From assembly GCA_963770895.1 (NCBI GenBank), contig CAVYRF010000002.1:5152001-5216000 (forward strand): a stretch of DNA of 64,000 bases. The letters are read 5' to 3'. This DNA is from an uncultured Acidobacteriota bacterium. GTDB taxonomy: Bacteria; Acidobacteriota; Thermoanaerobaculia; Multivoradales; UBA5704. Position 1 is the first letter of the stretch. The number at the start of each line of letters is the position of its first letter. Made by a program: the position numbers and the translations under genes. Positions 3,909 through 31,583 of this stretch are shown piece after piece. The notes under the pieces are model-generated. The model worked only from the letters and a program-made list of their open reading frames with translations. It was not told where the DNA came from and ran no database searches.

Positions 3909-5459
3909 TCAGCTGGAGATGGACACTTGGGACCTCGCGTCGAGGAAGAGCAGCCAGTCGATGGCCCAGGCGTAGTCGACCGGGTAGCCCCACCAGTCGG
4001 GCAACGTCGCACTGGCATCTACGGCCACGTCGTGGCGCGCGAGGTGTGCGGTCAGGGCCGCCACAGGCTCGTCTGTTGTCTCTGGCAGCGCCGGCGCCTG
4101 CGGGAGGAGCCTGCTGTCGGGGCGATCGAAGCGCGCTGTGCCGTCGGGCGCCAAGCGCAGCGAAAATCCCTCTTCGTGCACCGCGCGATGGTGGCGGCGG
4201 CAGAGCAGCACGGTGTTGGCGAGGCTGGTGGCGCCGCCATCGGCCCAGGCCTGCACGTGGTGGGCGTCGCACACCCGCCGACCGCAGCCCGGAAAGCGAC
4301 AGCCGCCGTCGCGATTCTGCAGGGCGCGGCGCAGGGCGGGGGAGATGGCGCGGGTGCGGCGTCCGACGTCCAGCACGGTGCCATCTGCGGCATGCCGCAT
4401 CACCACCCGCGCCGAGTCGCAGGCCAGCCGCCGGCACGTTTCCGCGGAAACGTGGGTGCCGTCCGCCAGCCAGGACTCACCGGCGCCGCCGGCCGGCAGC
4501 GCGTCTGCATCGACGTGCACCACCACCTGGTAGCGGTCGCCGCGGCTGCCGGGGTCGAGCCCCGCGGCCAGGGCGCTTTCGGCGATCAGGCCCAGGGCAT
4601 CGGCGCGGCGCTGCTCCAGGGAAGTATCGTCCGTCGCCTCTCCGGCGCCGCACACCTGGCCGGTATGTGGGCCGTGGAGCGCCGCGCCGCTGGCCTGCTC
4701 GCCAGTGGACGCTGGGCTGGTGCGGAGCTGGTGGGGTGCCTCGGCACCGGCGCGCGCGGTGCCGGCCGGCGGGCTGGTGCGTGGAGTGTGGAGCGTCTCG
4801 GCGTCGGCCCGCGCGGCGCCGGAGGGCAGAATGGTGCGTGGCCCGTAGAGCTTTTCGACGCCGGCGTCCAGGGCGCGGAGCAGCGCCGCTCCTGCTTCCG
4901 GCGGCAGGCGTCCCGCCACCACCACCATGCCGTCTTCGTCGGTGTAGGCGCGCAGGTAGCGCCCGGCATGGCGGCGGCGCTCGTCTTCGCCTGCGGCCAG
5001 GCGGTCGACGCGCCGCATGCCGCGAACCAGCCGTTCGACGTGAGCGGCGGTTCCCGCGCGCCCGAAGGTCAACAGGTAGTCTTCGTTGGAAGGCGTGGCG
5101 ATGCGGGTCAGGGCGCGCACCTTGGAGTAGGAAAGCTCACCGCGGCGCATCGCCGCCGCCAGCTGTGGCAGGGCACCCAGCGCGCGCGCCACGCGCAGTT
5201 TTTCGCGCGCCGCTCCGACGTCGAGCCCGACGCGCCAGCACAGCCAGTGGGCGCAGGATAGAAAGCCGGTGTTCCAGCCGCCCTGCTCGTCGAATTCGCG
5301 CAGCATGACCAGGAGCTCATAGGTGGCGGCCGAGATCTGCGCCGACAGATGGGCGATGCGCTCGCCGAGCTGCTCGAGCCGTGCACGTTGTTGCGCACCC
5401 GCCACCGGCCGGTCGAGCGCTATCGAAACCATTTGATCTTCTTCACTGACGGCGGTCAT
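3909..5459 (-). CDS. DUF222 (13E12-repeat-like) domain protein with C-terminal HNH endonuclease
   Basis: GW...GF.SCAHWL.WR, LSYSKVRALTR, HVSAETCRRLACD, LDVGRRTR, RDGGCRFPGC...DAHHV..W.DGG.T.L.N..LLCRRHHRAVHE. Alternative start at ATG 5432. Confidence 0.9.
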   Translation of the reverse strand: MTAVSEEDQMVSIALDRPVAGAQQRARLEQLGERIAHLSAQISAATYELLVMLREFDEQGGWNTGFLSCAHWLCWRVGLDVGAAREKLRVARALGALPQLAAAMRRGELSYSKVRALTRIATPSNEDYLLTFGRAGTAAHVERLVRGMRRVDRLAAGEDERRRHAGRYLRAYTDEDGMVVVAGRLPPEAGAALLRALDAGVEKLYGPRTILPSGAARADAETLHTPRTSPPAGTARAGAEAPHQLRTSPASTGEQASGAALHGPHTGQVCGAGEATDDTSLEQRRADALGLIAESALAAGLDPGSRGDRYQVVVHVDADALPAGGAGESWLADGTHVSAETCRRLACDSARVVMRHAADGTVLDVGRRTRAISPALRRALQNRDGGCRFPGCGRRVCDAHHVQAWADGGATSLANTVLLCRRHHRAVHEEGFSLRLAPDGTARFDRPDSRLLPQAPALPETTDEPVAALTAHLARHDVAVDASATLPDWWGYPVDYAWAIDWLLFLDARSQVSISS

Positions 5460-6017: not shown

Positions 6018-6662
6018 TCAGGTGCGGGAGCGGCCCGGCGTGGTCGCTGGATCGCTGGGGGCGGCGAAGGCTGCGGATAGTTGCGGCAGGTAGAAGGCGC
6101 ACCAGAGGAGCAGCGGCAGGGCCAGCTTGAGGGGCAGGTCCAGGAGGTGCCTGCCGAGGGCGTAGAAGTTGCGCGCGAAGGGGCCGTAGTTGGCGGCGCT
6201 CCAGGCGCCGAGGTGGGTGGCGTAGGTGGCCTTGACGATGAAGATGACCAGCACGATGTCGTAGGCGACGGTGGCCATGACCGCGATGCCCAGGTTGGTC
6301 AGCTTTTGCTGCCAGGGGACGCCCGGCACGGCCAGGAACAGGGCGCCGAGCAGCATGAGGTGGAAGTGCACGTCGGTGGCGTGGAAGGGGTAGACCAGGG
6401 CGCGCGCCGGCGGGAAGTCGCGCCGGACGACGTAGGCGTCGTCGTTGCCCTTGGGCAGCAGGTCGGTCACCGGCGGGCGCTCGAACAGGCGCAGGATGGA
6501 TCCGGCGCTGCGCAGCAACACGCGGTTGTAGATCGGCGTCGCCAGCACCCAGGCGAGCGCCACCGGCAGCAGCCACAGCAGGGTGTTGCGGATCAGCCGG
6601 CTGGCCCAGGCCCGCGCCGGCGCGGCGGCGGGGCGGGCGCCGGCGTCAGAGGACCGGCTCAT
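6018..6662 (-). CDS. Putative exosortase H-associated membrane protein
   Basis: 214 aa with about 4 hydrophobic segments, overlapping the 3' end of the exosortase gene. Confidence 0.6.
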   Translation of the reverse strand: MSRSSDAGARPAAAPARAWASRLIRNTLLWLLPVALAWVLATPIYNRVLLRSAGSILRLFERPPVTDLLPKGNDDAYVVRRDFPPARALVYPFHATDVHFHLMLLGALFLAVPGVPWQQKLTNLGIAVMATVAYDIVLVIFIVKATYATHLGAWSAANYGPFARNFYALGRHLLDLPLKLALPLLLWCAFYLPQLSAAFAAPSDPATTPGRSRT

Positions 6663-7275
6663 CCTGCGCCGGGGCCGGCAGGCGGTTGGCCCATACGACC
6701 CATAACAGCACGCCGCACAGGATCACGACGCTCTGCCAGATCACCGTATGGAAGGACGCGAAGACGCTGGGGTAGTAGACGCCGATCAGGTAGAGGCTGA
6801 CCACCCGCACCAGGTTGACCACCTGGATCGCCGCGATGCCGAGCGCCAGGCCCCCCAGCCGCCAGCGCCAGGGCGCCGGAAAGGCGAGCACCGCCGCCAG
6901 GAAGATGAGCATCGCTTCGACGCCGTTGCAGCCGTTGCGGATGTTGACCGCGAAGCGCCCCTGGATGATGGTGCCGTGCATGGTGACGCGCTGGCCCATC
7001 AGGTTGAGCACGGCGCCGCTCAGCTGCGCCACGCCGCCGGTGAACGGTTCGACCACGTGATCGTTCACCCAGTTGACCGAGATCAGCGTGAAGCCGCCGG
7101 CGAGCAGCACCACGAACAGGACCAGAAAGGTGATCTCTCGCCGGTAGCGCGGCCAGAACGGCTGCTCGGGCGGTGACTGCGTGCCCGCCCCGCCGCCGCT
7201 GGGCCGCGCGGACGAAGCGCCGGCCGCGCCGCCGCCCGACCGCGGAGAATGAGGCTTGCTGCGGTTGCGTGCCAT
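6646..7275 (-). CDS. xrtH: Exosortase H-type membrane transpeptidase
   Basis: Multi-TM protein with the exosortase Cys/Arg/His residues in context: I.NGCNGVEA, QVVNLVRVVSL, FHTVIWQ. Confidence 0.8.
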   Translation of the reverse strand: MARNRSKPHSPRSGGGAAGASSARPSGGGAGTQSPPEQPFWPRYRREITFLVLFVVLLAGGFTLISVNWVNDHVVEPFTGGVAQLSGAVLNLMGQRVTMHGTIIQGRFAVNIRNGCNGVEAMLIFLAAVLAFPAPWRWRLGGLALGIAAIQVVNLVRVVSLYLIGVYYPSVFASFHTVIWQSVVILCGVLLWVVWANRLPAPAQDEPVL

Positions 7276-7284
7276 AGGATGGCC

Positions 7285-9027
7285 TCATCTTACGGACCGC
7301 GGCGCGGCCTGTCCAGCCGCAGGGGCCGCTTGCGTCGCGGCTGTCGCGGCTGCCGCCGGCGTGGCGGTCGGCGGGGGTGCGGTCGCGGTCGGAGGCGCAG
7401 TCGGCGCAGGTGCGGTCGCGGTCGGCGGCGAAGTCGGCGCGGTCGCGGTCGGAGGCGAAGTCGGCGCAGGCGCGGTCACGGTCGGCGGCGAAGTCGGCGC
7501 AGGCGCGGTCACGGCCGGCGGCGCAGTCGGCGCGGTCGCGGTCACGGTCGGCGGCGAAGTCGGCGCGGTAGCGGTCGGAGGCGCAGTCGGCGCAGGCGCG
7601 GGCTTCTTCGCGGGCGCGTGCGCGGGCTCCTTCGCAGGCGCGGTCGCCGTTGGCGCGGCGGCGGACTCTTCCCCGATCAGCTGGTCGTAGGCGGCGCCCA
7701 GCGCGGCGGTGAAGGCGGCGGCGGAAAAGCGCTGCTCGAAGGTGGCGCGGGCGCGGGCGCCCAGCTGCCGGCGGAGCGCGGGGTCGGCGAGCAGCCGGCC
7801 GAGGGCGCCGGCGAGCGCGGCGACGTCGCCGGGCGGGACGAGCAGCGCGTTGTCGCCGTCGGTCAGGTCTTCGGGCAGGCCGTCGCAGCGCGACGAGACG
7901 ATCGCGCAGCCGGCCTGCAGCGCTTCCAGCACCGCGAGCGAGCCGCTGCCTTCCTGAATCGAAGGCAGCACGAAGATCGCCGCGTGCCGCAGGAAAGGGC
8001 GGGGATCGTCGACCCTTCCGGGCAGGGCGACGCGATCGCCCAGGCCCAGCCGCTGCGCCAGCGCCCGGTGCGCCGCGAGCAGCGGCCCCTGGCTCAACAG
8101 GCAGGCGCGGCAGGCGATGCCGCGATCGCGCAGGGCGGCGAGCGCGTGCAGCAGGACGTCGACTCCCTTGCGCGGGTCGTGGCGCGACAGCGAGACGACC
8201 AGCGGCGGCGCGGCCGGCGATGCGAGCGCCGCAAGGTCGGGCGGCAAGTCCGACAGGACAGCCGCCTGAGGCGCCGGCGCCGGTGGGGCGGCGAGCGGTC
8301 CGGCGTCGACGCCGGTCGGCCCCGGTGCCGTCTGCGGCTCCGTCTCCGGCTCCGCCAGGCGGCCCCCCGGCGCGTCGTCGAAGGCGGCCGGGGCCGCGTA
8401 GGGAATCTGGCGGATATCGACGGTCAACCGGTAGTCGGCGAGCAGGCGATCGCGCACCGACTGGTAATTGATCAGCACCAGGCGCTGCGCCTGGTAGCCG
8501 CGGCGTTCGCAAGGCGCGCCCAGCAGCAGCACCATGCCGTACTCGCGCCAGTGGCGCAGGCGCTGGCGCAGGCCGTGGTAGCCCTGCAGGCCGGTCAGCT
8601 TTTCGCGGTACTCGTGCTGCAACGTGGTGTACGCGCTCGCCACCGAGACGGCGCGGCGTCCCCGCCGGGCCAGCGATCGCGCGACGCCCGCGGCCACGTA
8701 GCCCCACACGCCGAAGCCGTGCAGCAGCACCGGCCCCGGACGGTCGCCCAGATGGCGCCGGATCGCGGCGGCGACAAAGGGGCGGTGGGCGCCGACCATG
8801 AAGCCGCGGAACGGCCGCACCGGCGACGCGACCCGATGCACGGTGGCGAAGTCGGTCTGCCACCGGGCGGCGTGGTCGCCGGCGCAGAAGACGTGCGGCG
8901 CAAATCCCGCCGCGCTCGCCGCCATGGCGTGGGCCAGGACGTAGCTTTCGTGGCCGCCGACCTTGGCAAAGGGGTCGATGCCGGACACCAGGACCAGCTG
9001 CACCGCCTTACGCACGGCCGGGCTCAA
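7285..9027 (-). CDS. Glycosyltransferase family 4 (GT-B) with Pro/Thr/Ala-rich C-terminal tail
   Basis: GGHESY, SRHDPRKGVDVLL, FVLPSIQEGSGSLAVLEALQAGCAIV, DGDNALLVPPGD. TTG start at 9027 overlaps the upstream TGA (TTGA). Confidence 0.85.
   Translation of the reverse strand: MSPAVRKAVQLVLVSGIDPFAKVGGHESYVLAHAMAASAAGFAPHVFCAGDHAARWQTDFATVHRVASPVRPFRGFMVGAHRPFVAAAIRRHLGDRPGPVLLHGFGVWGYVAAGVARSLARRGRRAVSVASAYTTLQHEYREKLTGLQGYHGLRQRLRHWREYGMVLLLGAPCERRGYQAQRLVLINYQSVRDRLLADYRLTVDIRQIPYAAPAAFDDAPGGRLAEPETEPQTAPGPTGVDAGPLAAPPAPAPQAAVLSDLPPDLAALASPAAPPLVVSLSRHDPRKGVDVLLHALAALRDRGIACRACLLSQGPLLAAHRALAQRLGLGDRVALPGRVDDPRPFLRHAAIFVLPSIQEGSGSLAVLEALQAGCAIVSSRCDGLPEDLTDGDNALLVPPGDVAALAGALGRLLADPALRRQLGARARATFEQRFSAAAFTAALGAAYDQLIGEESAAAPTATAPAKEPAHAPAKKPAPAPTAPPTATAPTSPPTVTATAPTAPPAVTAPAPTSPPTVTAPAPTSPPTATAPTSPPTATAPAPTAPPTATAPPPTATPAAAATAATQAAPAAGQAAPRSVR
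7362..7600 (-). repeat. Imperfect tandem repeat encoding (PTATAPTSP / PTVTAPAPTSP)n
   Basis: Recurring GCGGTCGCGGTCGG(A/C)GGCG(A/C)AGTCGGCGC units in the GT4 3' end. Confidence 0.85.
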
Positions 9028-10043
9028 CGGGCGTCCGCGCCCACGTTCACGGCGGCGGTCGCCGCCGTCCCCGCCGCGTCCGCCGCTCCCGCCGCGCCCG
9101 CCGGTCTGTCGCGGCGGCGTAGCAGCGCCCGGCGCAGCGACCGGCGCAAGGGAAACGCCCACAGCTCCTGCGGCACGATCGGCTGGCGGGCCGTGGTCAG
9201 GCGCCCGCCCAGCCGTTGCCGCAGCGCCGCCGGGGTGCCGGTGCCAAAGCGGCGTGCCAGCTCGCGCCCAGTGACGTACTGCCGGTCCAGGTAGAGGTAG
9301 TCCGCCGCGGCGTCGGCGGCGAACCACAGCCAGTTGGCCGCCAGGTAGCTGGACGCGGTGAAGCCGACGTTGGGATCCAGGTAGGTGAGCACCAGCGCCG
9401 CCTGCGGAAAGCGCTGCCGCAGCAGCGGCAGCGCGCGGCTCCAGCAGAACGAGAAGGCGTTGCGCGGCGCCCAGCGAAAGGTGTACACGCGCGACAGCAA
9501 CAGCACGTTGTCGGGCGCCACCCCCGCCGGCAGCGCGTCGCCGTGACCGGCCAGGTCGAAGCGCGACGCCAGCAGCAGCGTCGCCGGCGGCATCCCCTGC
9601 GGCGTCCCCGCGAAGTAGAGCCCCAGCGCCGCGCCGTCGCGCGGCGTGCCGACGTAGTGGAACCGCTCGCAGACCGCGCGCGTCACGTCGGCGGGCACGT
9701 CGCGGACGCTGCTGCCGGCCGCGCCGTCGCCGCGCCCCTCATGCCAGTGGAGAAATCCCTGCTGGTCGCGGCGGATGCGCTCGAGCACTGCCCGTGCTTC
9801 GGCGGCGGCGATGCGCGGGTCGGCCAGCTCGCGGCGCGACAGCCGCGGCATCTGCTGCCGCAACCGCAGGCGCGCCAGAAACGTGTCGTCTCCCGGTTCG
9901 GCAACCAGGTCGAGCGCGCGGTCGGCCGCCAGCGCATAAGGGCTCACCGGGTGCGGCACCTGACCCTCCGCGGGCGGCGCCGGGACCGTCAGCGGCGGCC
10001 CGTCGGACGGTGGCGCTGCCCGGGTGCGGAGCGGGTTGTTCAT
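9024..10043 (-). CDS. Mom-like (GNAT-fold, adenine methylcarbamoylase-family) protein
   Basis: Motif order CERFHY...LGLY...LLLSRVY...APRNAFS...LVLTYLDPNVGFTASSYLAANW...YLYLD parallels the Mom-family pattern HY..LGL..L.R..P.N..S..SYAD...G..G..Y.A.NW. Confidence 0.65.
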   Translation of the reverse strand: MNNPLRTRAAPPSDGPPLTVPAPPAEGQVPHPVSPYALAADRALDLVAEPGDDTFLARLRLRQQMPRLSRRELADPRIAAAEARAVLERIRRDQQGFLHWHEGRGDGAAGSSVRDVPADVTRAVCERFHYVGTPRDGAALGLYFAGTPQGMPPATLLLASRFDLAGHGDALPAGVAPDNVLLLSRVYTFRWAPRNAFSFCWSRALPLLRQRFPQAALVLTYLDPNVGFTASSYLAANWLWFAADAAADYLYLDRQYVTGRELARRFGTGTPAALRQRLGGRLTTARQPIVPQELWAFPLRRSLRRALLRRRDRPAGAAGAADAAGTAATAAVNVGADAR

Positions 10044-10184
10044 GTGATGGGCGCCAGAATATCACCGGGGTACAGAGCGGTGAGGTGGCGACCGTCTCAC
10101 CAAGTTCGTGCTCACGCACTTTCTGTTGCGGAGAGCGGTCTCTCCCCATCCATTGTGTCCGCCGAGACGGACAAGGAGGAATCC

Positions 10185-10370
10185 ATGAGGAAGCACCTGC
10201 ACAAGCTCCAGCTGAACCGCGAAACTCTGCGCGGGCTCGAGGGCACCAACCTGCGCCGCGCCGCCGCCGGCGTCTACGCGAGCCTCGGCACCTGTGGCAC
10301 CCCCTGCACCGAACAGTGCACCAATCCCTGCTCCTGGACCTGCCACTACCCCTGCGGCGAGCAGCCGTAA
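10185..10370 (+). CDS. RiPP precursor peptide (class I lanthipeptide-like leader, Cys-every-fourth core), 61 aa
   Basis: Strong SD AAGGAGG before ATG 10185. Sequence MRKHLHKLQLNRETLRGLEGTNLRRAAAG-VYASLGTCGTPCTEQCTNPCSWTCHYPCGEQP, with codon usage typical of the genome. Confidence 0.85.
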   Translation: MRKHLHKLQLNRETLRGLEGTNLRRAAAGVYASLGTCGTPCTEQCTNPCSWTCHYPCGEQP

Positions 10371-10568: not shown

Positions 10569-11126
10569 ATGGCCCACGACCTGACGCCGAAAGCGACCAT
10601 CCTTGATGCTGAGCAGATGGCGCGCATGATTCGGCGGATGGCTGGCGAAATCAGCGAGCGCAACCGCGGTGTGTCGGACCTGCTGCTGATCGGCATCCGC
10701 ACGCGCGGAGTGCCGCTGGCCGCAGCGATCGCCGCCGAGATCGAGCACATGGAGGGGCTGAAGGTGCCCCTGGGGGTGCTCGACATCACGCTGTATCGCG
10801 ACGACCTGTCGGCGGTGGGGGCGCAGCCGCGGGTGGGAGTCAGCCGGCTGCCGCATAAGATCGACGGGCGCGTCGTGGTGCTGTGCGACGACGTGCTGTT
10901 CACCGGGCGGACGGTGCGGGCGGCGCTCGACCAGCTGCTCGACTACGGGCGGCCGCGCTCGGTGCAGCTGGCGGTGCTGATCGACCGCGGCCACCGCGAG
11001 CTGCCGATCCAGGCCGACGTGGTGGGCAAGGTGGTGCCCACGTCGCGCGACGAGGCGATCGAGGTGTGCTTCGAAGCCACCGACGGCAGCCAGCAGGTAC
11101 GCATCCTGGAGCGCGCGGCGCCGTGA
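10569..11126 (+). CDS. pyrR: PyrR bifunctional regulator / uracil phosphoribosyltransferase
   Basis: [50 protein letters not shown]. Confidence 0.96.
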
Positions 11127-15188: not shown

Positions 15189-15368
15189 CTGTGATACCTC
15201 CTCGAAGAAACCGCGCGCCGTTGCCAAACGGCGGCGCAGCAACCAATTTGGTTGTAAAGACCATGAGCTATACTGCCGCGTGTGCCTTCCTTCGACGATG
15301 CAACAACGCCGAGCGGCGCGACGGTGGCGGCGGGTGCTGCCGGGCAGCATGCGGCACCTGATGGTTTG

Positions 15369-17519
15369 ATGCCGCGGCCGGCGCCGGTGGCGGGGTCGCA
15401 GCGGCGCAGGCAAGTGTGGCGCGCGCTCCAACCATGGCGCTGGCCGCGATCTCCGGCAATGCCTGGAGCGGCGGCAGCGCCGGGTGCACCGCGACCACGC
15501 TGGCGGCCGCTGACGGCGCTGCGCGGCTTCCTGGTCGTCTGCGGCCTGCTGGCGCTGTATTGCGTACCGACGCTCCTTTACTTCTACCCCGCGTGGACCA
15601 CCCTGACGCGGCGTTTGATCGGCGAGGCCGGCGACCCCACGTTCAACCTTTACGTCCTGAAGTGGGGGGCGCACCAAGTCCGTCTCGGAATGCCCGATTT
15701 TTGGAACGCCAATTTCATGTACCCGGTCCGCGGCACCCTGGCTTTTTCCGATCACCTGCTGGGGCCCGCGTTGCAGCTGGTCGTCTTGCAAAAGCTGGAC
15801 CTGGCAGCGAACGCGATTGCCGGGTACAACCTTCTGCTGGTCTCCTCGTTCGTGCTGAGCGGCGCCGCCACCTGCTGGGTGCTGCGCCGCGGCGGCCGCT
15901 CGCGCGCCGCGGCGGTCGTCGGCGGCTTGCTGTTCGCCTTTGCGCCGATGCGCTGGGCGCACCTGGACCACATCCAGATCCTGCTGGCGCAATGGGTGCC
16001 GCTGACCCTGTGGTATTGGGACCGCCTGCTGGCGCAGCCCAGCGCGCGCCGCGCCGCCTGCTTCCTGCCGTTCTACCTGCTGCACGTGACCGGCGGCTGC
16101 TACCTGGCCTACATGATCCACGTGCCGATGCTGGCGCTGGCCGTCAGCCGCCGGCCGCGCAGCGTGGCGGAGCTGCGCCGGCTGGTCGCTGGCCCCGGCC
16201 TGCGCGTGCTGCTGGCGGTGGCGCTGCCGGCGGCGGCGACGGTGTACTGGCTGTTTTCGCCTTACGTCGAGGCGGCGCGCCGCCACGGCCTGGAGCGCTC
16301 GCCTGCCGAGGTGGCGCTGTACGCGGCTTCGCTGCTGAGCTACCTCGCCCCCGCCGAATCCAACTGGTACGCCGGCGGCTGGCACCGTGTGATCGATCGC
16401 TGGCAGCTGGAGGTGAGCCTGGACGAAGGGCGCCTGTTCGCCGGCTTCGTCGCCACGGCGCTGTGCGCCTGCGGCCTGGCGCTGTGGTGGCGGCGCCACC
16501 GCCGGCGGCCCTCGCGGCCGCTGGCCGGCTGGCAGCGCGCGGTCCTGGCGGCGCTGCTGCTGGCCGCCGCCGCGGCGTTTGTGATCGGTGACGTGCGGAC
16601 GTTCGACCCCGGTGCCGCGGACACCGCGTGGAACCTGCCGGCGCTGGCTCTGGCGCTCAGCCTGGGCCTGTGGCTGGCGGCGCGGCGCCGGTGGGGCGGC
16701 GCCGGCCCCGTCGGCTGGGCGGGGATCGATCCCTGGGAGCGGGGGCTGGCCGCGGGCGGAGCGCTGTGCTTTCTGCTCTCGTTCCCGATCGTCTTCGTGC
16801 CGCTGATGGGCATCGTCCCCGGCCTGGGCGGCCTGCGCGCTCCCGGCCGCTTCTACGCCATCACCTCCTTTGTCGTGGTGTGGTTCGCCGCCGCGGGTTG
16901 CGACGCCCTGCTGGCGCGCCTTGCCGGGGCCGCGGAGCGGCGCGGCTGGGCAGGGAGCCGGCGCTTTGCCCTGCGTCTGGCGGCCGCGGCGGTCCTGGTC
17001 GTGGCGGCGCTGGTGGACCTGGCGCCCAGCGAGGTGACGACGCGGCGGCTGCGCGCCGAGCCGGATTTCCCGGCGGTCTACGCGGCGCTGCGCGCGCTGC
17101 CGGCGGACGAGGTGGGAGGCATCCTTGAGCTGCCGCGCCTGCGGCCGGTGCGCGAGACGCTCTACATGTACTACTCGACGCTGCACTGGAAGCCGATCGC
17201 CAACGGCTACAGCGGCTTTCTGCCCGAGCGATACCTGGAGCTGCGCGAACGCATCCCCCTGCTCCCCGCCGACGCCGCCGCCTTCGACCTGGTGCGCCAG
17301 TGCGGCATCACCCACCTGGTGGTGCACGCCGGCGGGCAGCCCGGCAGCCCTATCCGCGACCAGCTGCCCGCCTGGGAGCGCCGGTACCTGAACAGCGCCG
17401 TCCGGCGCCTCTACGACGACGGCGCCGACCGGATCTATCGGGTCGTCGACCCCATCCGGCCGCGCTTGCTGGCGGAGGCCGCGGCTCCTAGTGTCATCGC
17501 TTCCCTGGGCGGCCGCTAG
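15369..17519 (+). CDS. Polytopic membrane protein, YfhO/GT-C-like
   Basis: GDP.FNLYVLKW, FWNANFMYP...LAFSDHL, FAFAPMR, LRAPGRF, H.KPIANGYSGF.P and many TM segments. Start codon uncertain. Confidence 0.65.
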   Translation: MPRPAPVAGSQRRRQVWRALQPWRWPRSPAMPGAAAAPGAPRPRWRPLTALRGFLVVCGLLALYCVPTLLYFYPAWTTLTRRLIGEAGDPTFNLYVLKWGAHQVRLGMPDFWNANFMYPVRGTLAFSDHLLGPALQLVVLQKLDLAANAIAGYNLLLVSSFVLSGAATCWVLRRGGRSRAAAVVGGLLFAFAPMRWAHLDHIQILLAQWVPLTLWYWDRLLAQPSARRAACFLPFYLLHVTGGCYLAYMIHVPMLALAVSRRPRSVAELRRLVAGPGLRVLLAVALPAAATVYWLFSPYVEAARRHGLERSPAEVALYAASLLSYLAPAESNWYAGGWHRVIDRWQLEVSLDEGRLFAGFVATALCACGLALWWRRHRRRPSRPLAGWQRAVLAALLLAAAAAFVIGDVRTFDPGAADTAWNLPALALALSLGLWLAARRRWGGAGPVGWAGIDPWERGLAAGGALCFLLSFPIVFVPLMGIVPGLGGLRAPGRFYAITSFVVVWFAAAGCDALLARLAGAAERRGWAGSRRFALRLAAAAVLVVAALVDLAPSEVTTRRLRAEPDFPAVYAALRALPADEVGGILELPRLRPVRETLYMYYSTLHWKPIANGYSGFLPERYLELRERIPLLPADAAAFDLVRQCGITHLVVHAGGQPGSPIRDQLPAWERRYLNSAVRRLYDDGADRIYRVVDPIRPRLLAEAAAPSVIASLGGR

Positions 17520-26288: not shown

Positions 26289-26605
26289 CGGCTCTCCACG
26301 GAAGATGTGCCCCCGGCAGACGGCGGGCGTCGGGCGGTCGCCAGAGGATATCGCACCCCGCGAGGCGGCGAGAGATCAGCATTTGCCGTAAGGCTCGTGG
26401 TTATATGCTGACGCCGCGGAGCCGGGCGGTCGGCAGGGTGGCAAGCAGCCGGGTTCGGCCGCGCTTCGCGCCCCGCGCCCCGCAGACGGCGCGGTGTGCA
26501 CTCCTTAGGATGGAACCAGAGGTCTGGCAGCCGCCGCGGCGATTCCGCCGCGCCGGCGGCGGCAGGCAAGGGGACGCCCCTGGCGGCGCGTCCGCGGAGG
26601 ATGGC

Positions 26606-28015
26606 ATGGCAGGTGAAACGGAAGCGGGCAGCTGGCTGCCGATCGTGACGGAGGGACCGCTCCTGGCGCAGATCGACCAGGCGCTGGACGAATTGGCGGT
26701 GGTGCTGGCGCCGCTCGCGGGCGAAGCGCCGGCGGCAGGCGGGTCGGGTGCGAGCGCGGCGGCGGCCGCCGCGCCGACCAATGGCCGGCGGCCGGCGGAT
26801 GCGGCGGCGGAAGAGGCGGCGGCGGGGGAGGGGGCGTGGCAGCTGGGCGGCGGGCCGTCGGGCGAGGCGCTCTTCTTTACCTACCTCGACCAGGCGCGGC
26901 CGGAGCGCGGCTATGACGAGCGGGCGCTGGTGCACCTGGAGGCGGTGATCGAGGCGGCGGCGCGCGAATCGCTCTTTCCCAGCCTGTACGGCGGGTTCAG
27001 CGGTGTCGCCTGGGCGTTGGAGCACCTGACCGGGCGGCTGCTGGAGGAGCCCGCGTCCGGCGCCGAGGACCCCGGCGCCGAGGTCGCGGAGGTGCTCGAC
27101 GGCTACCTGCGGCAGACGCCGTGGAAGGACGACTACGACCTGATCGGCGGCCTGGTCGGCTACGGCGTGTACGCGCGCGAGCGCGCGCCGCGGCCGGGAG
27201 GCGCCGAAGCGGCGGCGAGCGTCGTCGAGCGGCTGGGCGAGCTGGCCGAGCGGCGCGACGGCGGCGTCACCTGGCACACGCCGGCGGAGCGGCTGGCGCT
27301 GCAGAAGGCGGACTACCCGGAGGGCCACTACAACCTGGGCGTGGCGCACGGCGTGCCGGGCGTCATCGGCCTGCTGGGGGAGCTGCGGGCCGCCGGCCTG
27401 GCGACGGCGGAGTCCGACCGGATGCTGGCGGACTCGGTGGCGTGGCTGTTCGGGCAGCGGCTGCCGGCGGGCACCGGCTCGGCGTTCGGCTACAACACCG
27501 TGCCGGGCGGCGCGGTGGTGCGGGAGGCGCCGTCTCGCCTGGCCTGGTGCTATGGCGACGCCGGCATCGTGCTGACGCTGATGGTCGCCGCGCGCGCCGC
27601 CGGCGAGCCGAGCTGGGAGGCGGCGGCGCTGGACATCGCGCGTGCCGCGGCGCAGCGGCCGCATGCTGAGGTGGGAGTGCTGGACGGCGGCCTGTGCCAT
27701 GGGTCCGCCGGCCTGGCGCACCTGTACAACCGCCTCTACCAGGCGACGCGCGAGCCTCTCTTCAAGGCCCAGGCGATCGCCTGGCTGGAGCACCTGCTCT
27801 CCTTGCGGCAGGCGGGGGAGGGCCTTGGCGGCTGGCGCACCTGGCGGCCGTTGGGACCGATGGGCGATCCCAATCCCACTTTCGGCTGGGTGACCGACTC
27901 CGGCTTTCTGACCGGCGCCGCCGGCATCGGCCTCACCCTGCTGGGCGCGGTCAGCGCGGTCGAGCCCGCCTGGGATCGCCTGCTGCTGACCAGCGTGCCG
28001 CCGATCGCACCCTGA
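26606..28015 (+). CDS. lanC: Lanthionine synthetase C (class I lanthipeptide cyclase)
   Basis: SD GGAGG. SLYGGFSG, YDLIGGLVG, NLGVAHGVPG, RLAWCYGDAG, GLCHGSAG, GFLTGAAG; the Zn-ligand WCxG and CHG motifs are intact. Confidence 0.92.
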   Translation: MAGETEAGSWLPIVTEGPLLAQIDQALDELAVVLAPLAGEAPAAGGSGASAAAAAAPTNGRRPADAAAEEAAAGEGAWQLGGGPSGEALFFTYLDQARPERGYDERALVHLEAVIEAAARESLFPSLYGGFSGVAWALEHLTGRLLEEPASGAEDPGAEVAEVLDGYLRQTPWKDDYDLIGGLVGYGVYARERAPRPGGAEAAASVVERLGELAERRDGGVTWHTPAERLALQKADYPEGHYNLGVAHGVPGVIGLLGELRAAGLATAESDRMLADSVAWLFGQRLPAGTGSAFGYNTVPGGAVVREAPSRLAWCYGDAGIVLTLMVAARAAGEPSWEAAALDIARAAAQRPHAEVGVLDGGLCHGSAGLAHLYNRLYQATREPLFKAQAIAWLEHLLSLRQAGEGLGGWRTWRPLGPMGDPNPTFGWVTDSGFLTGAAGIGLTLLGAVSAVEPAWDRLLLTSVPPIAP

Positions 28016-28049: not shown

Positions 28050-31000
28050 TCAGGACGTGGCGGCGGCTTCGGCGGTCGCGGCGGCTTCGGCTGCCGCGGC
28101 GCCGGCTGCTGCCGGGGCGGCTTCCGCGGCGGCGTCCGGCGGGGTCGGTGCGGGGCTGTTGCGGGCGGCGCGGGCGGCGCGCGAGCGGTGGACCTGGTAC
28201 AGGAAGTCGTAGAGGACCATTTCGTGGGCGCGCGCCGAGGAGCGGATGAAGCGGTTGACGTGCATGTGGGCCAGGCTGGTCGACATGTCGGCCAGGGTTC
28301 CCAGCAGGGCGCCCTGCTCCTGCAGGCGGTGGAGCTCGGCAAGGATCGGTGCCGACCTTTGCGAGCGGCGGGCGAAGACGGCCAGGGCCGGGGCGAGCGG
28401 GTTGTCGGGATCGCCCGCGGCGTCGAGCAGCGGCGCCAGCTGCGGGCGCTCGGTGCGGAACTTCTGGTCGAGCTGCACCTGCAGCGCCTTCTGCGCCTTT
28501 TCGTCGGCGTTGGCGCCGGCAAATTCGCGGTTGAAGTTGTCGCGCAGGCGCGACAGCACCTTGACCTTGGTCGCGGCGTCCAGGCCGACGTCGTCGAGCA
28601 GGGCGTTGACACCGAAGAAGGCCAGGCGCCAGCGCAGGTCGGCGCCCTCGTCGCCCTCCAGCATGTCGAGGATGTCCATCACCGCTTCGCTGTCGGCCTG
28701 GAAGAGACGCTCGACCAGGCCGATGCCGGCCGGGCCGCCGTAGCGCTCGACTTCCTGCTCGTAGGTGTCCAGCTGCAGCTTCCACATGCGGCCGTCGGCG
28801 AGCAGCGGCGCCGCGGCGGCATGCAGGGCGGGCAGCACCTGCGCGGTGAGGGCCGCGGGATCGCCGTGGAAGCGCACCCGCACGTGCCAGTCGGGATCGC
28901 CGTAGCGGATGAAAAACCAGCTGTCGATGAGCCCTGCCGGCCCCACCTGGCGCAGCAGCGGCGCCACCACGTCGCGCAGCACGCGGTCGGCGGTGGCGGT
29001 GCCGGTGTAGAGCTTGGCGTAGAGCCATTCGGAGCCCGGGGCAAACGACCGCTGCATGCCGGCGCCGGTTCCGGCGGCGGCGAGCGGCGCCGGGCGGGCG
29101 GTGGCCGGTGGCGTTGCGGGGGCTGAGGCGGCGGTGGCTGCCGTGGTGGGCTGGGCCTGCGGCTGGGGGCGCGGCAGGCGATGGTAGGGCACCACCAGCT
29201 CGGAGACGAAGCGGCCTTCGGGACCGTGCGCGACCAGCGCGTCGGGTCCCGGGAAGAGCTCGTGCAGGCGCGCCCGGTCGCGCTCTTCGACCACGTCCAG
29301 GAAGGCGTCGATCGCCAGCGTGTTGTCCAGGTCGACCAGCAGCTCGTTGTCGCCGTCGGCGAGAACCACCAGGCGCGGCAGGCGCCGCCGCGCACGCCAA
29401 GCCTGGACGGCCACGAAGCGTTGGGTGCCCTGCGCCTTGGCGAGCTGCTTGATCTCTTCTCCGGTCATCCACCAGGCGGCGCGCGACAGCACCAGCCGCC
29501 CGTTGGTGACGCGCGGCAGGAACGGCGCGCTGTCGAGCGCTCCCCAGTTCCAGCTGAAGCCGCCGACCAGCTCCTGCGCCTGGAGGGTGCACAGGAACCG
29601 ATACAGACCCAGGCTGCGGGTGATGAAGTTATGGGCGCTGGTCAGGCGGGGGATGATCTCCCGTCCCAGCGCCCGCGAGGTGATCACCACCCGGTTGCCG
29701 ACGACCGACACCAGCAGATCGGTGATCGGGATCTGCCGATCTTCGGGCGCGCCGGAGCGGCCCAGGTAGGGGATCTCGTAGTCGCGCATCACCGGCCGCG
29801 ACAGGATGTTGCCGATCCGCCCCTGCGGCAGGTGGACGATCTCGGCAAACAGGGCGTCCGGCCGCAGCGCCTCTTCGGCGCGCAGATGAGCCCGAGTGTG
29901 CTGTTCCAGCAGCGGATCGGCGTGGCAGAAGCGCCCCAGCAGGCGGGCGCCCGAGGGCCCCGCGGCGCCGTTCATCAGCAGCTGGAAGTCGCCCGCGGCC
30001 ACCGCTTCGGGCGAGGCGGCGGCCAGGAACACCACCACCTGAAAGGCGTCGGGGAGGCGGTCCGGGCGCTCCGTTCCCGCCATGCGATCGAGATCTTCGG
30101 CGGTCAGCTCCATCTGCTGGCTGTCCTGCGCCAGCGTGTCCTGGAGCTTGGCGAGCAGCGCCGCCTGGCGCAGGCTCCAGGCGACCGTGGATTCGGCGGC
30201 GGCGCCGCCCAGGGCGAGGCCGCGCAGCAGCGGCGACGCTTCGGCGCCGACTTCCGAGGTGCGCTCGAAGCCGATGCCGATCTCTTCGTCGAGCGCTTCG
30301 ACCAGCGGCACCTGGCGTTCGCCGAAGCGCTCCTGGAATTCCTGCCGGAACTTTTCCAGCCCTTCGTTGCGCGACCGGCCCACCAGGCGCAGCTGCAGGT
30401 CCATGCCGCGCGCCACTTCCGCCAGCACGGCATCGTCGAGGCTGGCTTCGACGAAGGGTTTGACCATGTCGACCTGGAACAGGCGCGCCATCTCGACCGG
30501 CGTCGGCAAGGTCTCCAGGCTGGTGGCGATGGCGCGGTAGGAGTCGGGGGGGGCGCCGGGTCCCGCCGCGTCCAGCGCCGCCAGGGCGTCGCGGGCGGCG
30601 GCCAGGCGCTCCGCCGCCTGCTGCCCGGCCGGCAGGGTGGCCAGGTGCTGCACCAGGTCGTGGATCGCTTCGGGCCCGGTGACCGGCGGCGACAGGTCCG
30701 ACACCAGCACCTGGGAGTCGATCAGCTCGGTGATAAAGGCGTCGGCGTCTTCGCGCGAGATCTCGAAATCCGCTTCGGCGTCGGGTTCGGCCGCGGGGGC
30801 GTCGGTGTCGGCGGGTGCAGCGGGTGCGGCGGCGGCGGCGTGCTCCGCCGTCACCAGCGCGGCGGCGAGGTCGGCGGCCAGGGCGCCGCCGCGCGCGCGT
30901 TCCAGGGTGGCCTCCAGGTAGTCGGAGGCGTCCACCGCCACCAGGTGGTGGGAGCGCACCTTCTTCTCGAGACGCGCTTCGGCATAGCGCAGGCGGCCGG

Positions 31001-31583
31001 CGGCGCGGTACAGGCTGGAGTTGGGGTGGAAGCGCAACGCGGCGCGCATGGCCGGATCGCGCTCCAGCTCTTCGCAGAGCGCGAACAGGTAGTCCATGTC
31101 GAGCCGGGTGTGGCGCCCGTAGGCGGCGCGCGGGGCGAGCGACAGGGCGGTGCGCGTGGCGGCGCCGGCCGGCCGCACCGCCGTCGAGCAGCCCGAGAAC
31201 ATGCCGAACGGGGTCGCCCGCGATGCCATGCGCAGGAAGTAGCGCACCAGGGCGCGCTCGGCCCGCTGCCCCTTCTTGCTTTCGGGGTCGCGCCGCCAGA
31301 GCTCCATGGCGTCGGCGAGCGACGGCGACGCCACGAACAGCGCTTCGCGCACTTCGGCGCGCTCCGCCAGCGCTTCGAGGCGCGTGCGCAGCATCCGGCG
31401 GTCCGCGGCGATGGCGGCGGCCAGCGCTTCGCTGTCTGCCGCCCCTGCCGCTGCCGCCGCGGGCGCGGCGAGGCCGGCGCTCCACGCTTCCACCTCCTCG
31501 AACGGCAGGAGCGGCGTGCGGAAGACGAAGAACGAGGGTCGCTCGTAGAGATCGGCGATCGATGTGCGAGTCTGCGTAGTCAC
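28050..31583 (-). CDS. lanB: Lantibiotic dehydratase LanB (glutamylation plus elimination domains)
   Basis: FRTPLLP, Y..RM.SRATPFGMFSG, GRF, NILSRP, PRLTSAHNF, FLPRV, DNELL.DL. C-terminal WLYAKLY, FFIRY.DP..H.R.RF, TY..E.ERYGG, F..DS, SLAHMHVNR. Confidence 0.94.
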   Translation of the reverse strand: MTTQTRTSIADLYERPSFFVFRTPLLPFEEVEAWSAGLAAPAAAAAGAADSEALAAAIAADRRMLRTRLEALAERAEVREALFVASPSLADAMELWRRDPESKKGQRAERALVRYFLRMASRATPFGMFSGCSTAVRPAGAATRTALSLAPRAAYGRHTRLDMDYLFALCEELERDPAMRAALRFHPNSSLYRAAGRLRYAEARLEKKVRSHHLVAVDASDYLEATLERARGGALAADLAAALVTAEHAAAAAPAAPADTDAPAAEPDAEADFEISREDADAFITELIDSQVLVSDLSPPVTGPEAIHDLVQHLATLPAGQQAAERLAAARDALAALDAAGPGAPPDSYRAIATSLETLPTPVEMARLFQVDMVKPFVEASLDDAVLAEVARGMDLQLRLVGRSRNEGLEKFRQEFQERFGERQVPLVEALDEEIGIGFERTSEVGAEASPLLRGLALGGAAAESTVAWSLRQAALLAKLQDTLAQDSQQMELTAEDLDRMAGTERPDRLPDAFQVVVFLAAASPEAVAAGDFQLLMNGAAGPSGARLLGRFCHADPLLEQHTRAHLRAEEALRPDALFAEIVHLPQGRIGNILSRPVMRDYEIPYLGRSGAPEDRQIPITDLLVSVVGNRVVITSRALGREIIPRLTSAHNFITRSLGLYRFLCTLQAQELVGGFSWNWGALDSAPFLPRVTNGRLVLSRAAWWMTGEEIKQLAKAQGTQRFVAVQAWRARRRLPRLVVLADGDNELLVDLDNTLAIDAFLDVVEERDRARLHELFPGPDALVAHGPEGRFVSELVVPYHRLPRPQPQAQPTTAATAASAPATPPATARPAPLAAAGTGAGMQRSFAPGSEWLYAKLYTGTATADRVLRDVVAPLLRQVGPAGLIDSWFFIRYGDPDWHVRVRFHGDPAALTAQVLPALHAAAAPLLADGRMWKLQLDTYEQEVERYGGPAGIGLVERLFQADSEAVMDILDMLEGDEGADLRWRLAFFGVNALLDDVGLDAATKVKVLSRLRDNFNREFAGANADEKAQKALQVQLDQKFRTERPQLAPLLDAAGDPDNPLAPALAVFARRSQRSAPILAELHRLQEQGALLGTLADMSTSLAHMHVNRFIRSSARAHEMVLYDFLYQVHRSRAARAARNSPAPTPPDAAAEAAPAAAGAAAAEAAATAEAAATS

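Follow-up and report, generated by a model that had tools for sequence, protein, structure and literature searches.

To our knowledge, all characterized members of the Mom family of DNA-modifying enzymes are viral and act alone. A locus on the chromosome of an uncultured Acidobacteriota bacterium raises the question of what such an enzyme does in a cell when a glycosyltransferase gene directly follows its own. The window analyzed here is the whole stretch of 64,000 nucleotides from positions 5,152,001 to 5,216,000 of contig CAVYRF010000002.1 (assembly GCA_963770895.1). The host is a soil bacterium with a genome of 8.16 Mb in three contigs, and the G+C content of the window is 72.7%. Two minus-strand genes of the window are the subject of this report. 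The first encodes a Mom-like protein and the second encodes a glycosyltransferase of family 4 (GT4). The Mom-like protein belongs, as a divergent member, to the Mom-family GNATs. Its gene and the GT4 gene meet at a tight junction in a non-phage context, and the pair is an insertion into a variable slot of the chromosome. By analogy with phage Mu Mom, we tentatively read the pair as an acquired module that would aminoacylate and then glycosylate a nucleic acid base.

Mom of phage Mu is the reference enzyme for the family. The available part of PMC13219725 describes Mu Mom as moving glycine from Gly-tRNAGly onto N6 of adenine in double-stranded DNA, after which the adduct rearranges to a carbamoylmethyl form. 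The use of Gly-tRNA by Mom on DNA was shown only recently in that work, which supersedes the earlier acetyl-CoA/iron model (the latter in the available part of PMC7261163). The chemistry assigned to Mom in a preliminary description of the window is outdated, since the Mu enzyme takes glycine from Gly-tRNA (PMC13219725). The same portion of PMC13219725 lists R111, S124, and R151 as essential residues, reports that a helix-turn-helix (HTH)-like insertion is required and models it as DNA-binding, and has the Mu enzyme working without a second enzyme. Momylation systems occur in phage and bacterial genomes alike, and Mom domains of jumbo phages are fused to restriction-type nucleases (both from the available part of PMC7824862).

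Sequence, profile, and structural comparisons were used to place the 339-residue window protein. It matches the Pfam family PF25680 'Mom' over residues 113–277 (E 1.8e-9; 38 bits vs a cut-off of 27.1) and PHROG 1384 'Mom-like DNA modification protein' (7.3e-7). The open reading frame (ORF) and every motif of the Mom order reported in the preliminary description are present (RFHY at residues 127–130, LLSRVY at 182–187, PRNAFS at 193–198, TYLDPNVGF at 220–228, and SSYLAANW at 231–238), and both family databases agree with that report. The sole meaningful solved chain found with a profile built from six relatives is Mu Mom (8bv8, E 0.0048). The AlphaFold2 model, computed with 96 relatives in the alignment, has a predicted local distance difference test score (pLDDT) of 87.3 and a predicted template modeling score of 0.84. 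A check of this model against Mom and GNAT structures had been set in advance, and it returned a clear match: the top solved chain in Foldseek is Mu Mom (8bv8_A; E 8.7e-10; template modeling score 0.67 by target). Re-alignment (VIA) to 8bv8 gives Z 16.1 and a root-mean-square deviation of 4.2 with 201 of 222 residues aligned; the next GNAT scores Z 12.3, about 4 Z lower. Its neighbors in a language-model atlas are Mom clusters, of which two are mainly actinobacterial and one is mainly viral, and the Mom family set is common to all 30 nearest clusters. Among the curated NCBIfam profiles, none for a FemAB-type or other acyltransferase matches the protein. These data identify the window gene as a true but divergent member of the Mom-family GNATs, and the assignment is solid except at the position of R151.

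Residues were mapped to Mu Mom with HMMER and MAFFT alignments, using the Mu numbering of the 2026 paper (PMC13219725). The counterparts of H58/Y59, R111, S124, D149, and Y159 are H129/Y130, R185, S198, D223, and Y233. W181 maps to Y256, the dimer residue W48 maps to D119, and the essential R151 maps to N225. Among 96 clade members R185 is invariant, S198 is at least 90% conserved, and the D223 position is Asn in most. The two helices of the HTH-like insertion align with the Mu Mom insertion, which lies between the last strands (Mom ~175–209), and the alignment to 8bv8 extends to residue 316. Mu Mom is thus the top structural and profile match of the window protein and shares its GNAT fold, its HTH-like insertion, and most key residues. 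The two proteins differ in being only 17–18% identical, in the residues at W48 and R151, and in an N-terminal helical extension of the window protein. This extension has no counterpart in Mu Mom and is common to the cellular clade, where family matches begin at query residues ~36–65. The window gene differs also in being chromosomal, without a com-like regulator or phage genes, and in being followed by a GT4 gene. Its G+C content at third codon positions (GC3) is 0.91, typical of the genes of this genome.

The assignment of the downstream gene to the GT4 enzymes of the GT-B class, made at first from its sequence, is borne out by profile searches. It matches Glyco_trans_1_4 (8.5e-30, 104 bits) and Glycos_transf_1 (1.4e-27, 96.7 bits) in Pfam. 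The EX7E motif is intact (EGSGSLAVLE, residues 359–368), and a GGHESY loop occupies residues 24–29. The N-terminal Glyco_transf_4 domain scores 19.5 bits, under its cut-off of 28.5. The top curated matches are the PEP-CTERM/XrtA-system glycosyltransferase and EpsE, at 85 bits vs cut-offs of 409 and 400. Among the NCBIfam matches listed (25 of 30), the named GT4 equivalogs (stp2, EpsE, BshA, MshA, and others) are all far under their cut-offs. Homologue matches split in two pieces that flank a Pro/Ala-rich insert, and the enzyme ends in a Pro/Thr-rich tail. Most of this tail is an 11/9-residue Pro/Thr-rich repeat encoded by 7.5 copies of 33/27-nt tandem repeats at 7367–7601. The named homologues are from Acidobacteriota. 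Relatives were searched in 41 genomes, which comprise the host's own, nine others of its genus, and 31 further genomes. The GT4 subfamily has matches in all 41, and three further paralogues are present in the host genome by tblastn.

The junction between the two genes is tight under every choice of start codon. The Mom-like TGA (9026–9024) overlaps by 4 nt a TTG (9027–9025) that is in frame with GT4, which is the overlap that the preliminary description reported. Its use as the GT4 start is ambiguous, and both the database and the homologues favor a GTG. Two GTGs of the same frame follow the TTG at distances of 12 and 24 nt (9015 and 9003). The database call of 576 residues (P0162) corresponds to the GTG at 9015, 8 nt past the Mom-like stop, and a GTG start is favored because most GT4 homologues have 2–7 residues ahead of the first strand. 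Whichever start is used, the genes are no more than 20 nt apart (a 4-nt overlap or a gap of 8–20 nt). GT4 is probably on the same transcript as the Mom-like gene, with its translation coupled. Short contigs from public runs match parts of the region without differences, including 8909–9182 over the gene junction, and other parts are uncovered. The run that gave these contigs may itself be the source sample, and no RNA run is among the public runs listed for the region. A complex prediction with the Mom-like protein (residues 30–320) and GT4 (residues 1–450) scored 0.00, which is evidence neither for nor against an interaction.

The recurrence of the pair was traced through the family. An exhaustive search for Mom-like proteins gave 403 representatives with a threshold of E ≤ 1e-3, of which 281 pass 1e-10 and 42 pass 1e-30. 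The context set consisted of 23 loci with Mom-like relatives (8 in species genomes and 15 in metagenomes) and was searched by tblastn with the window and locus proteins. A homologue of the window GT4 was found at none of these 23 sister-clade loci. This count is silent on the nearest kin of the window protein because none of the 23 loci belongs to its subclade. In a tree of 34 Mom-like proteins the window protein lies in a subclade of 14 rows (support 100/99), within which {P0013,(window,(P0007,P0008))} groups together with support 99/95. P0008 is 62% identical to the window protein, and P0282, a Mom-like member of its 90% cluster, is on a Joint Genome Institute (JGI) contig of 4387 bp. The GT4 protein P0165, the fourth-best match to the window GT4 at 65% identity, is on a JGI contig that is also 4387 bp. 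The Mom-like protein P0013 (49% identical) and the GT4 protein P0171 (55%, tenth-best) are both on JGI contigs of 53211 bp. These are the only two exact size agreements among 20 Mom-like and 123 GT4 contig sizes. The chance expectation is ~0.15 agreements, and the probability of two or more is ~0.01; with the nine best GT4 rows alone it is ~6e-5, a restriction that was chosen post hoc. The sizes of 12 further Mom-like contigs, compared by eye, do not agree with those of GT4 contigs, and a further protein search with the subclade alignment gave 11 proteins and no new contig agreement.

The GT4 tree agrees with the Mom-like tree. Among its 38 rows the window GT4, P0165, and P0171 form one clade with P0163 and P0164 (Shimodaira–Hasegawa-like approximate likelihood ratio test 93). 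This clade leaves out the paralogue from the same genome (P0169) and the orthologue of a relative (P0166). The idea that the GT4 gene arose by recent local duplication, with no relation to the Mom-like gene, was considered and dropped after the contig-size matches and the GT4 tree. The recurrence is seen only indirectly, through sizes and trees, and suggests that a small clade has probably conserved the pairing with GT4. By this indirect evidence the two genes are linked again in the small clade of the window protein, and the linkage is not family-wide.

The sister clades have a different protein in the position of GT4. At 14 of the 23 loci a protein of ~360–400 residues without a Pfam family lies directly 3′ of the Mom-like gene, in one case with two in-frame stops. 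These loci, in which the partner is typically ~370 residues, are L013–L017, L053, L056–L058, L060, and L063–L066 (e.g., L013:8627–9709). Of the 13 partner loci examined, 10 have a 4-nt overlap between the Mom-like stop and a start codon of the partner, so that a coupled downstream partner is the normal layout of the family. A gene with an archaeo-eukaryotic primase (AEP)-like domain (PF24387) is upstream in 6 of the 23 loci. In 4 of the 23 loci a HAD phosphatase and a membrane protein take the place of the partner. In a third Mom-like subclade, from metagenome-assembled genomes of Actinomycetota (L018, L019, L020, and L062), the linked genes encode a HAD-family hydrolase and a ~250-residue membrane protein, and not the transmembrane partner. 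At L059:620–1981, where the contig has 28% G+C, a 453-residue protein contains the Mom-like domain and a C-terminal extension of ~180 residues.

The structure of the partner was modeled with a pLDDT of 87.6. The model has an alpha/beta N-terminal domain, an Ig-like sandwich, and two C-terminal transmembrane helices. We did not detect a Pfam or PDB sequence match, Foldseek returned nothing clear, and the partner falls among unnamed clusters in the language-model atlas. A fold search against 48,161 chains gave Ig-like matches for residues 185–304. For the N-terminal domain (residues 1–172), the only whole-domain fold matches are EVE/YTH/PUA-like readers. They are weak (THYN1, an EVE protein, with 5-methylcytosine DNA at Z 7.8; Mmi1 YTH at Z 7.7 and 7.5; 2ar1 at Z 7.7), and unrelated models also reach such Z values and sequence support is lacking, so the likeness is a lead only. 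The partner was also considered as a hidden GT-B enzyme, and this was ruled out by its domain composition and by a list of fold matches that contains no glycosyltransferase.

The sister-clade systems appear to be undescribed, having neither a Pfam nor a PADLOC family. PADLOC 2.0 gave no defense family at E ≤ 0.01 for eight proteins that included Mom-like proteins, GT4, partners, and the AEP-like protein. Judged from the model, the Mom-like protein and its partner in these clades could form a writer–reader system. Their Mom-like proteins resemble the window protein in family, in the N-terminal extension, in the Asn at the R151 position, and in the downstream gene coupled through stop and start codons. 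They differ in that the partner is not a glycosyltransferase, and this partner was not found in the host genome (15 tblastn queries gave no match at E ≤ 0.01, and the best profile match among 24,037 ORFs had E 0.25). The AEP-like, HAD, and membrane proteins of the sister clades were not found there either. With the usual partner not found, GT4 fills the partner position in this genome.

The chromosomal setting indicates how the pair came to its present place. Exosortase H (XrtH) is encoded in 37 of the 41 genomes, the host included, and the host genome has 10 IPTL-CTERM matches. The slot was compared in the loci of 10 relatives (L043–L052). All 10 keep the order SMC, XrtH-associated gene, XrtH, and in nine XrtH faces pyrR-pyrB-pyrC; the tenth stretch is without visible pyr genes. 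XrtH and its associated membrane protein (6018–7275) are thus a conserved pair divergent from the pyr genes, and the XrtH–pyrR interval is a cargo hotspot. This interval measures 64 bp to 5.4 kb in the relatives and 3.3 kb in the window. Its cargo differs: three genomes of the genus have a secreted protein of ~430–441 residues there, one genome has thrB/thrC-like genes, and another has a helicase with a radical-SAM-like protein. The GT4 gene, the Mom-like gene, and the neighboring peptide gene are in none of the 10 slots, so the Mom-like/GT4 pair is not a conserved member of the exosortase H system.

The Mom-like gene is a single copy in the host genome. It has no match in any of the nine other genomes of the genus and only weak matches (25–30% identity) in 5 of the 31 remaining relatives. 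A sample of 400 genomes from the phylum contains no match at E 1e-10. A single-protein query gave no close relative in species genomes. The absence of the gene from the genus and of the pair from the slots of relatives identifies the pair as an insertion into a variable slot. Horizontal acquisition is part of the module reading and is held as tentatively as that reading. Convincing long direct repeats were not found at the flanks of the insertion. With tblastn, the Mom-like protein was matched neither in the 50,697 phage records nor in the 72,556 plasmid records searched. Two narrow pattern sets gave no close relative in IMG/VR, where only four distant viral Mom-like loci were found (29–33% identity), with neither GT4 nor the partner. 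No phage genes were seen in positions 1–31.6 kb of the window or within ~20 kb of the pair, and the statement in the preliminary description that none lie nearby is true of this interval by gene content.

The single most likely mechanism, to which we give a little less than even weight, is an acquired two-enzyme module for aminoacylation and then glycosylation of a nucleic acid base. In analogy with Mu Mom, the Mom-like GNAT would use a charged tRNA as its source of an aminoacyl group and attach this group to the exocyclic amine of a base; adenine in DNA is the most likely acceptor. GT4 would then add a sugar from a nucleotide sugar to the aminoacyl adduct, and the resulting glycosylated aminoacyl-type base may mark or protect nucleic acid of the cell itself. 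Donor, acceptor, step order, and biological role are all inferred in this scheme. DNA is the suggested target from the chemistry of Mom (available part of PMC13219725), the retained HTH-like insertion, and the weak EVE/YTH-like fold of the partner. The AEP-like primase genes and the EVE/YTH/PUA-like partner domain in the sister clades point to a family that leans to nucleic acid. A two-gene hypermodification cassette had been proposed for the locus from its sequence; the Mom fold and the recurring linkage in the small clade favor it, and the lack of family-wide linkage does not. A system with this pairing has not been described in the literature covered, which excludes Iyer 2009 and Iyer 2013, in agreement with the earlier statement.

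Several observations weigh against this mechanism. The essential R151 of Mu Mom is replaced by Asn225, and Asn is nearly invariant across the cellular clade; the donor or acceptor may therefore differ from those of Mom, or the chemistry may differ. The co-residence of the pair on two other contigs was deduced from equal size and source and not from DNA. The genes on the 4387- and 53211-bp contigs need not be adjacent or co-oriented, and those of the 53-kb contig could be far apart. None of the best 120 GT4 homologues is size-matched to the contigs of P0007, P0008, P0009, P0012, P0016, P0018, P0293, or P0294, and some of these unmatched subclade members are on long contigs (P0009, 21923 bp; P0012, 642983 bp; P0016, 18076 bp; P0293, 39848 bp). 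The pairing is thus limited to a small inner clade at best. The reader-like fold of the sister-clade partner shares the Z range of unrelated models. GT4 is a further difficulty. We know of no GT4 enzyme that acts on DNA. Known phage DNA glucosyltransferases belong to other GT-B families, and the window enzyme has no match to the phage DNA glucosyltransferase families in Pfam at E ≤ 1. The T-even and other viral enzymes are GT-B enzymes that add sugar to an already modified DNA base, the likeness on which the cassette proposal was premised. They differ in acting on 5-hydroxymethylpyrimidines in phage DNA, whereas the window GT4 belongs to a bacterial subfamily of the polysaccharide type. Its paralogues adjoin a GT2/pyruvyl-transferase fusion, a DegT aminotransferase, and a GT28-like gene, and this placement among polysaccharide genes indicates descent from a polysaccharide-type enzyme.

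The strongest rival is a real module whose acceptor is not a nucleic acid. Here GT4 would build a glycolipid, a small-molecule glycoside, or an envelope glycan, the GNAT would acylate or aminoacylate it, and the product may serve the envelope or the exosortase pathway. Mycothiol synthesis, which uses a GT4 enzyme and a GNAT (MshA and MshD), and the aminoacyl-tRNA-dependent aminoacylation of lipids by MprF are parallels. The nearest curated GT4 models, all scoring far under cut-off, are envelope or small-molecule enzymes (the PEP-CTERM/XrtA glycosyltransferase, EpsE, BshA, MshA, and GlcNAc-phosphatidylglycerol synthase). Exopolysaccharide loci of the XrtA/PEP-CTERM type contain GT4 enzymes and a FemAB-like GNAT that depends on aminoacyl-tRNA, and the window resembles them in having a GT4, a GNAT-fold transferase, and an exosortase in one neighborhood. 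The difference lies in the wide gap between the GT4 score and the XrtA cut-off, in a GNAT of the Mom type and not the FemAB type, and in an XrtH link that is not conserved. The position of the pair 9 nt upstream of XrtH, the GT4 paralogues situated among polysaccharide genes, the sister-clade partners that are membrane-anchored or replaced by a HAD phosphatase with a membrane protein, and the loss of R151 also favor a non-nucleic-acid acceptor. It is opposed by the retention of the Mom-specific HTH-like insertion together with R111 and S124, by a fold nearer to Mom than to any other GNAT, by the lack of an acyltransferase family in NCBIfam, by the absence of the XrtH link from the relatives' loci, and by the primase neighbors and reader-like partner of the sister clades. 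We consider this explanation possible but unlikely.

The next explanation in rank, also unlikely, is that the two genes are neighbors without a shared substrate. The Mom-like protein would act alone on DNA or RNA, and GT4 would be an ordinary envelope enzyme co-transcribed with XrtH. That Mu Mom needs no second enzyme in the available account (PMC13219725) fits this reading, as do the 23 sister-clade loci without GT4 and the lack of a matching one on most contigs of the protein's own subclade. The commonness of the GT4 subfamily in the lineage and the uncertain start codon of the window GT4 fit it as well. Three findings argue against it: the two exact contig-size matches with the closest GT4 homologues and the agreeing trees, the stop-codon-coupled downstream gene that is the norm of the family, and the failure to find the usual partner in this genome.

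The peptide gene on the opposite strand, 141 bp from the Mom-like gene, offers a further conceivable substrate. The pair could tailor this Cys-rich peptide by acylation and glycosylation, as GNATs and GT4-like enzymes do for some peptides, and the peptide gene is likewise missing from the slot in relatives. The peptide is real as an ORF (GC3 0.90, with AGGAGG 7 nt upstream), and its weak match to TIGR04117 is 18.8 bits, below 50. Its KLQLNRETLRGL...AAAG leader occurs at ~22 further places in the genome (E < 0.01), each time followed by a Cys/Ser/Thr-rich core. Precursor-like peptides of this kind, with a KLxLNRETLRxL...GG leader, form a large family scattered over the genome (e.g., C2:4304020, C2:3477115, and C2:4747628), and the copy in the window has six Cys in C-x3-C spacing. 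A LanC-like cyclase (26405–28012, plus strand) and a LanB-type dehydratase (28053–31583, minus strand; Lant_dehydr_N 6.5e-165) are encoded in the same window. They are class I lanthipeptide machinery and might process the dispersed peptides, whose Ser/Thr/Cys-rich cores would suit them. The ~22 paralogues with the same leader and the LanB/LanC genes make the peptide an unlikely dedicated substrate of the pair, and the Mom-family features favor the handling of nucleic acid. Tailoring of the peptide, which the preliminary description had offered as its other option, is very unlikely.

The least probable explanation of all, and one we would hardly credit, is an inactive Mom-like gene, left over from a transferred system whose partner was lost, and a juxtaposition without function; the failure to find the usual partner in the genome, the replaced R151, and the odd low-complexity expansions in GT4 speak for it, and the intact frame of 339 residues, the other key residues kept, the genome-typical GC3, the 49–65% identity to relatives without truncation, and an Asn that is the norm for the whole clade and so no local lesion speak against it.

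The remaining features of the locus are ordinary. Past the XrtH-associated gene on the downstream side is a DUF222-HNH gene, followed by SMC. The DUF222 and HNH endonuclease gene (3909–5459, minus strand) occupies a spacing that varies from ~0.15 to 2.6 kb in relatives. Upstream of the Mom-like gene on the opposite strand, the peptide ORF is followed by pyrR, pyrB, and pyrC. Ordinary cellular genes and the LanC/LanB pair fill 13.6–31.6 kb, and the genes in 1–31.6 kb include those for PilZ, inositol monophosphatase, an M23 peptidase, a T2SSE ATPase, chorismate synthase, and RNase II. A polytopic membrane protein of 745 residues without a Pfam or NCBIfam match (15282–17519, plus strand) has a shape that recalls GT-C type glycosyltransferases, an impression only. 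A promoter consensus scan gave 2 sites vs 0.1 expected. The promoter-like site at 7315–7287, a pattern match only, suggests that XrtH perhaps keeps its own promoter.

Table 1. Coordinates of features at the Mom-like/GT4 locus (positions in the window; aa, amino acids; AF2, AlphaFold2)
Feature	Position	Strand	Basis
XrtH-associated membrane protein (resembles)	6018..6662	-	NF041730 28.6 bits, under cut-off 35; syntenic in 10/10 relatives' loci
Exosortase H (XrtH), 9 nt 3′ of GT4; conserved core gene, outside the inserted pair	6646..7275	-	TIGR04177 122.7 bits > 86
GT4 glycosyltransferase gene, 580 aa from TTG / 576 from GTG	7285..9027	-	Glyco_trans_1_4, Glycos_transf_1, EX7E
Promoter-like site TGGACA-17-TAAGAT inside the GT4 3′ end, 5′ of XrtH	7287..7315	-	Consensus scan 9/12; pattern match only
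130-aa Pro/Thr-rich C-terminal tail of GT4	7288..7677	-	Translation; unseen in homologues examined (404–485 aa)
Pro/Ala-rich insert between Rossmann halves of GT4 (aa ~212–268)	8224..8394	-	tblastn matches to paralogues split at ~220/260
TTGA, Mom-like stop overlapping possible GT4 TTG start	9024..9027	-	Sequence
Mom-family GNAT gene, 339 aa (P0001)	9024..10043	-	Pfam PF25680, AF2 model, Mu Mom fold match
GNAT/Mom core (aa 106–316) with H129/Y130, R185, S198, D223, N225, Y233	9096..9728	-	Range aligned to 8bv8
HTH-like insertion (aa ~257–283), marks Mom off within GNATs	9195..9275	-	Model helices 259–266, 271–281
N-terminal helical extension (aa 35–101, ~70 aa)	9741..9941	-	Helices 35–47, 54–67, 70–74, 76–94 in model
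Divergent intergenic region, Mom-like gene / peptide gene	10044..10184	.	Sequence
61-aa precursor-like peptide: KLQLNRETLRGL leader, AAAG, C-x3-C repeat core	10185..10370	+	ORF
pyrR, conserved right border of variable slot	10569..11126	+	Pribosyltran 3.6e-26, synteny

If the module reading is correct, base modification that depends on tRNA would be carried out in cells as well, by a Mom-type enzyme that is encoded on the chromosome and has a conserved glycosyltransferase partner. The product would be a sugar-bearing purine adduct, with a bearing on restriction evasion, epigenetic marking, sequencing artifacts, and enzyme tools. A wider proposal, which we regard as doubtful, is that cells use a Mom-type tRNA-dependent writer and a dedicated GT4 to make a glyco-aminoacyl purine in DNA or RNA, an undescribed class of hypermodification. 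With the membrane-anchored EVE/YTH-like readers of the sister clades, it may belong to a new writer–reader and writer–writer group that acts on N6-adenine adducts. The analysis also brings to light ~400 cellular Mom-like protein clusters, usually partnered by an uncharacterized membrane protein with a possible modified-base reader domain. These clusters and this partner make the biology of the family directly testable.

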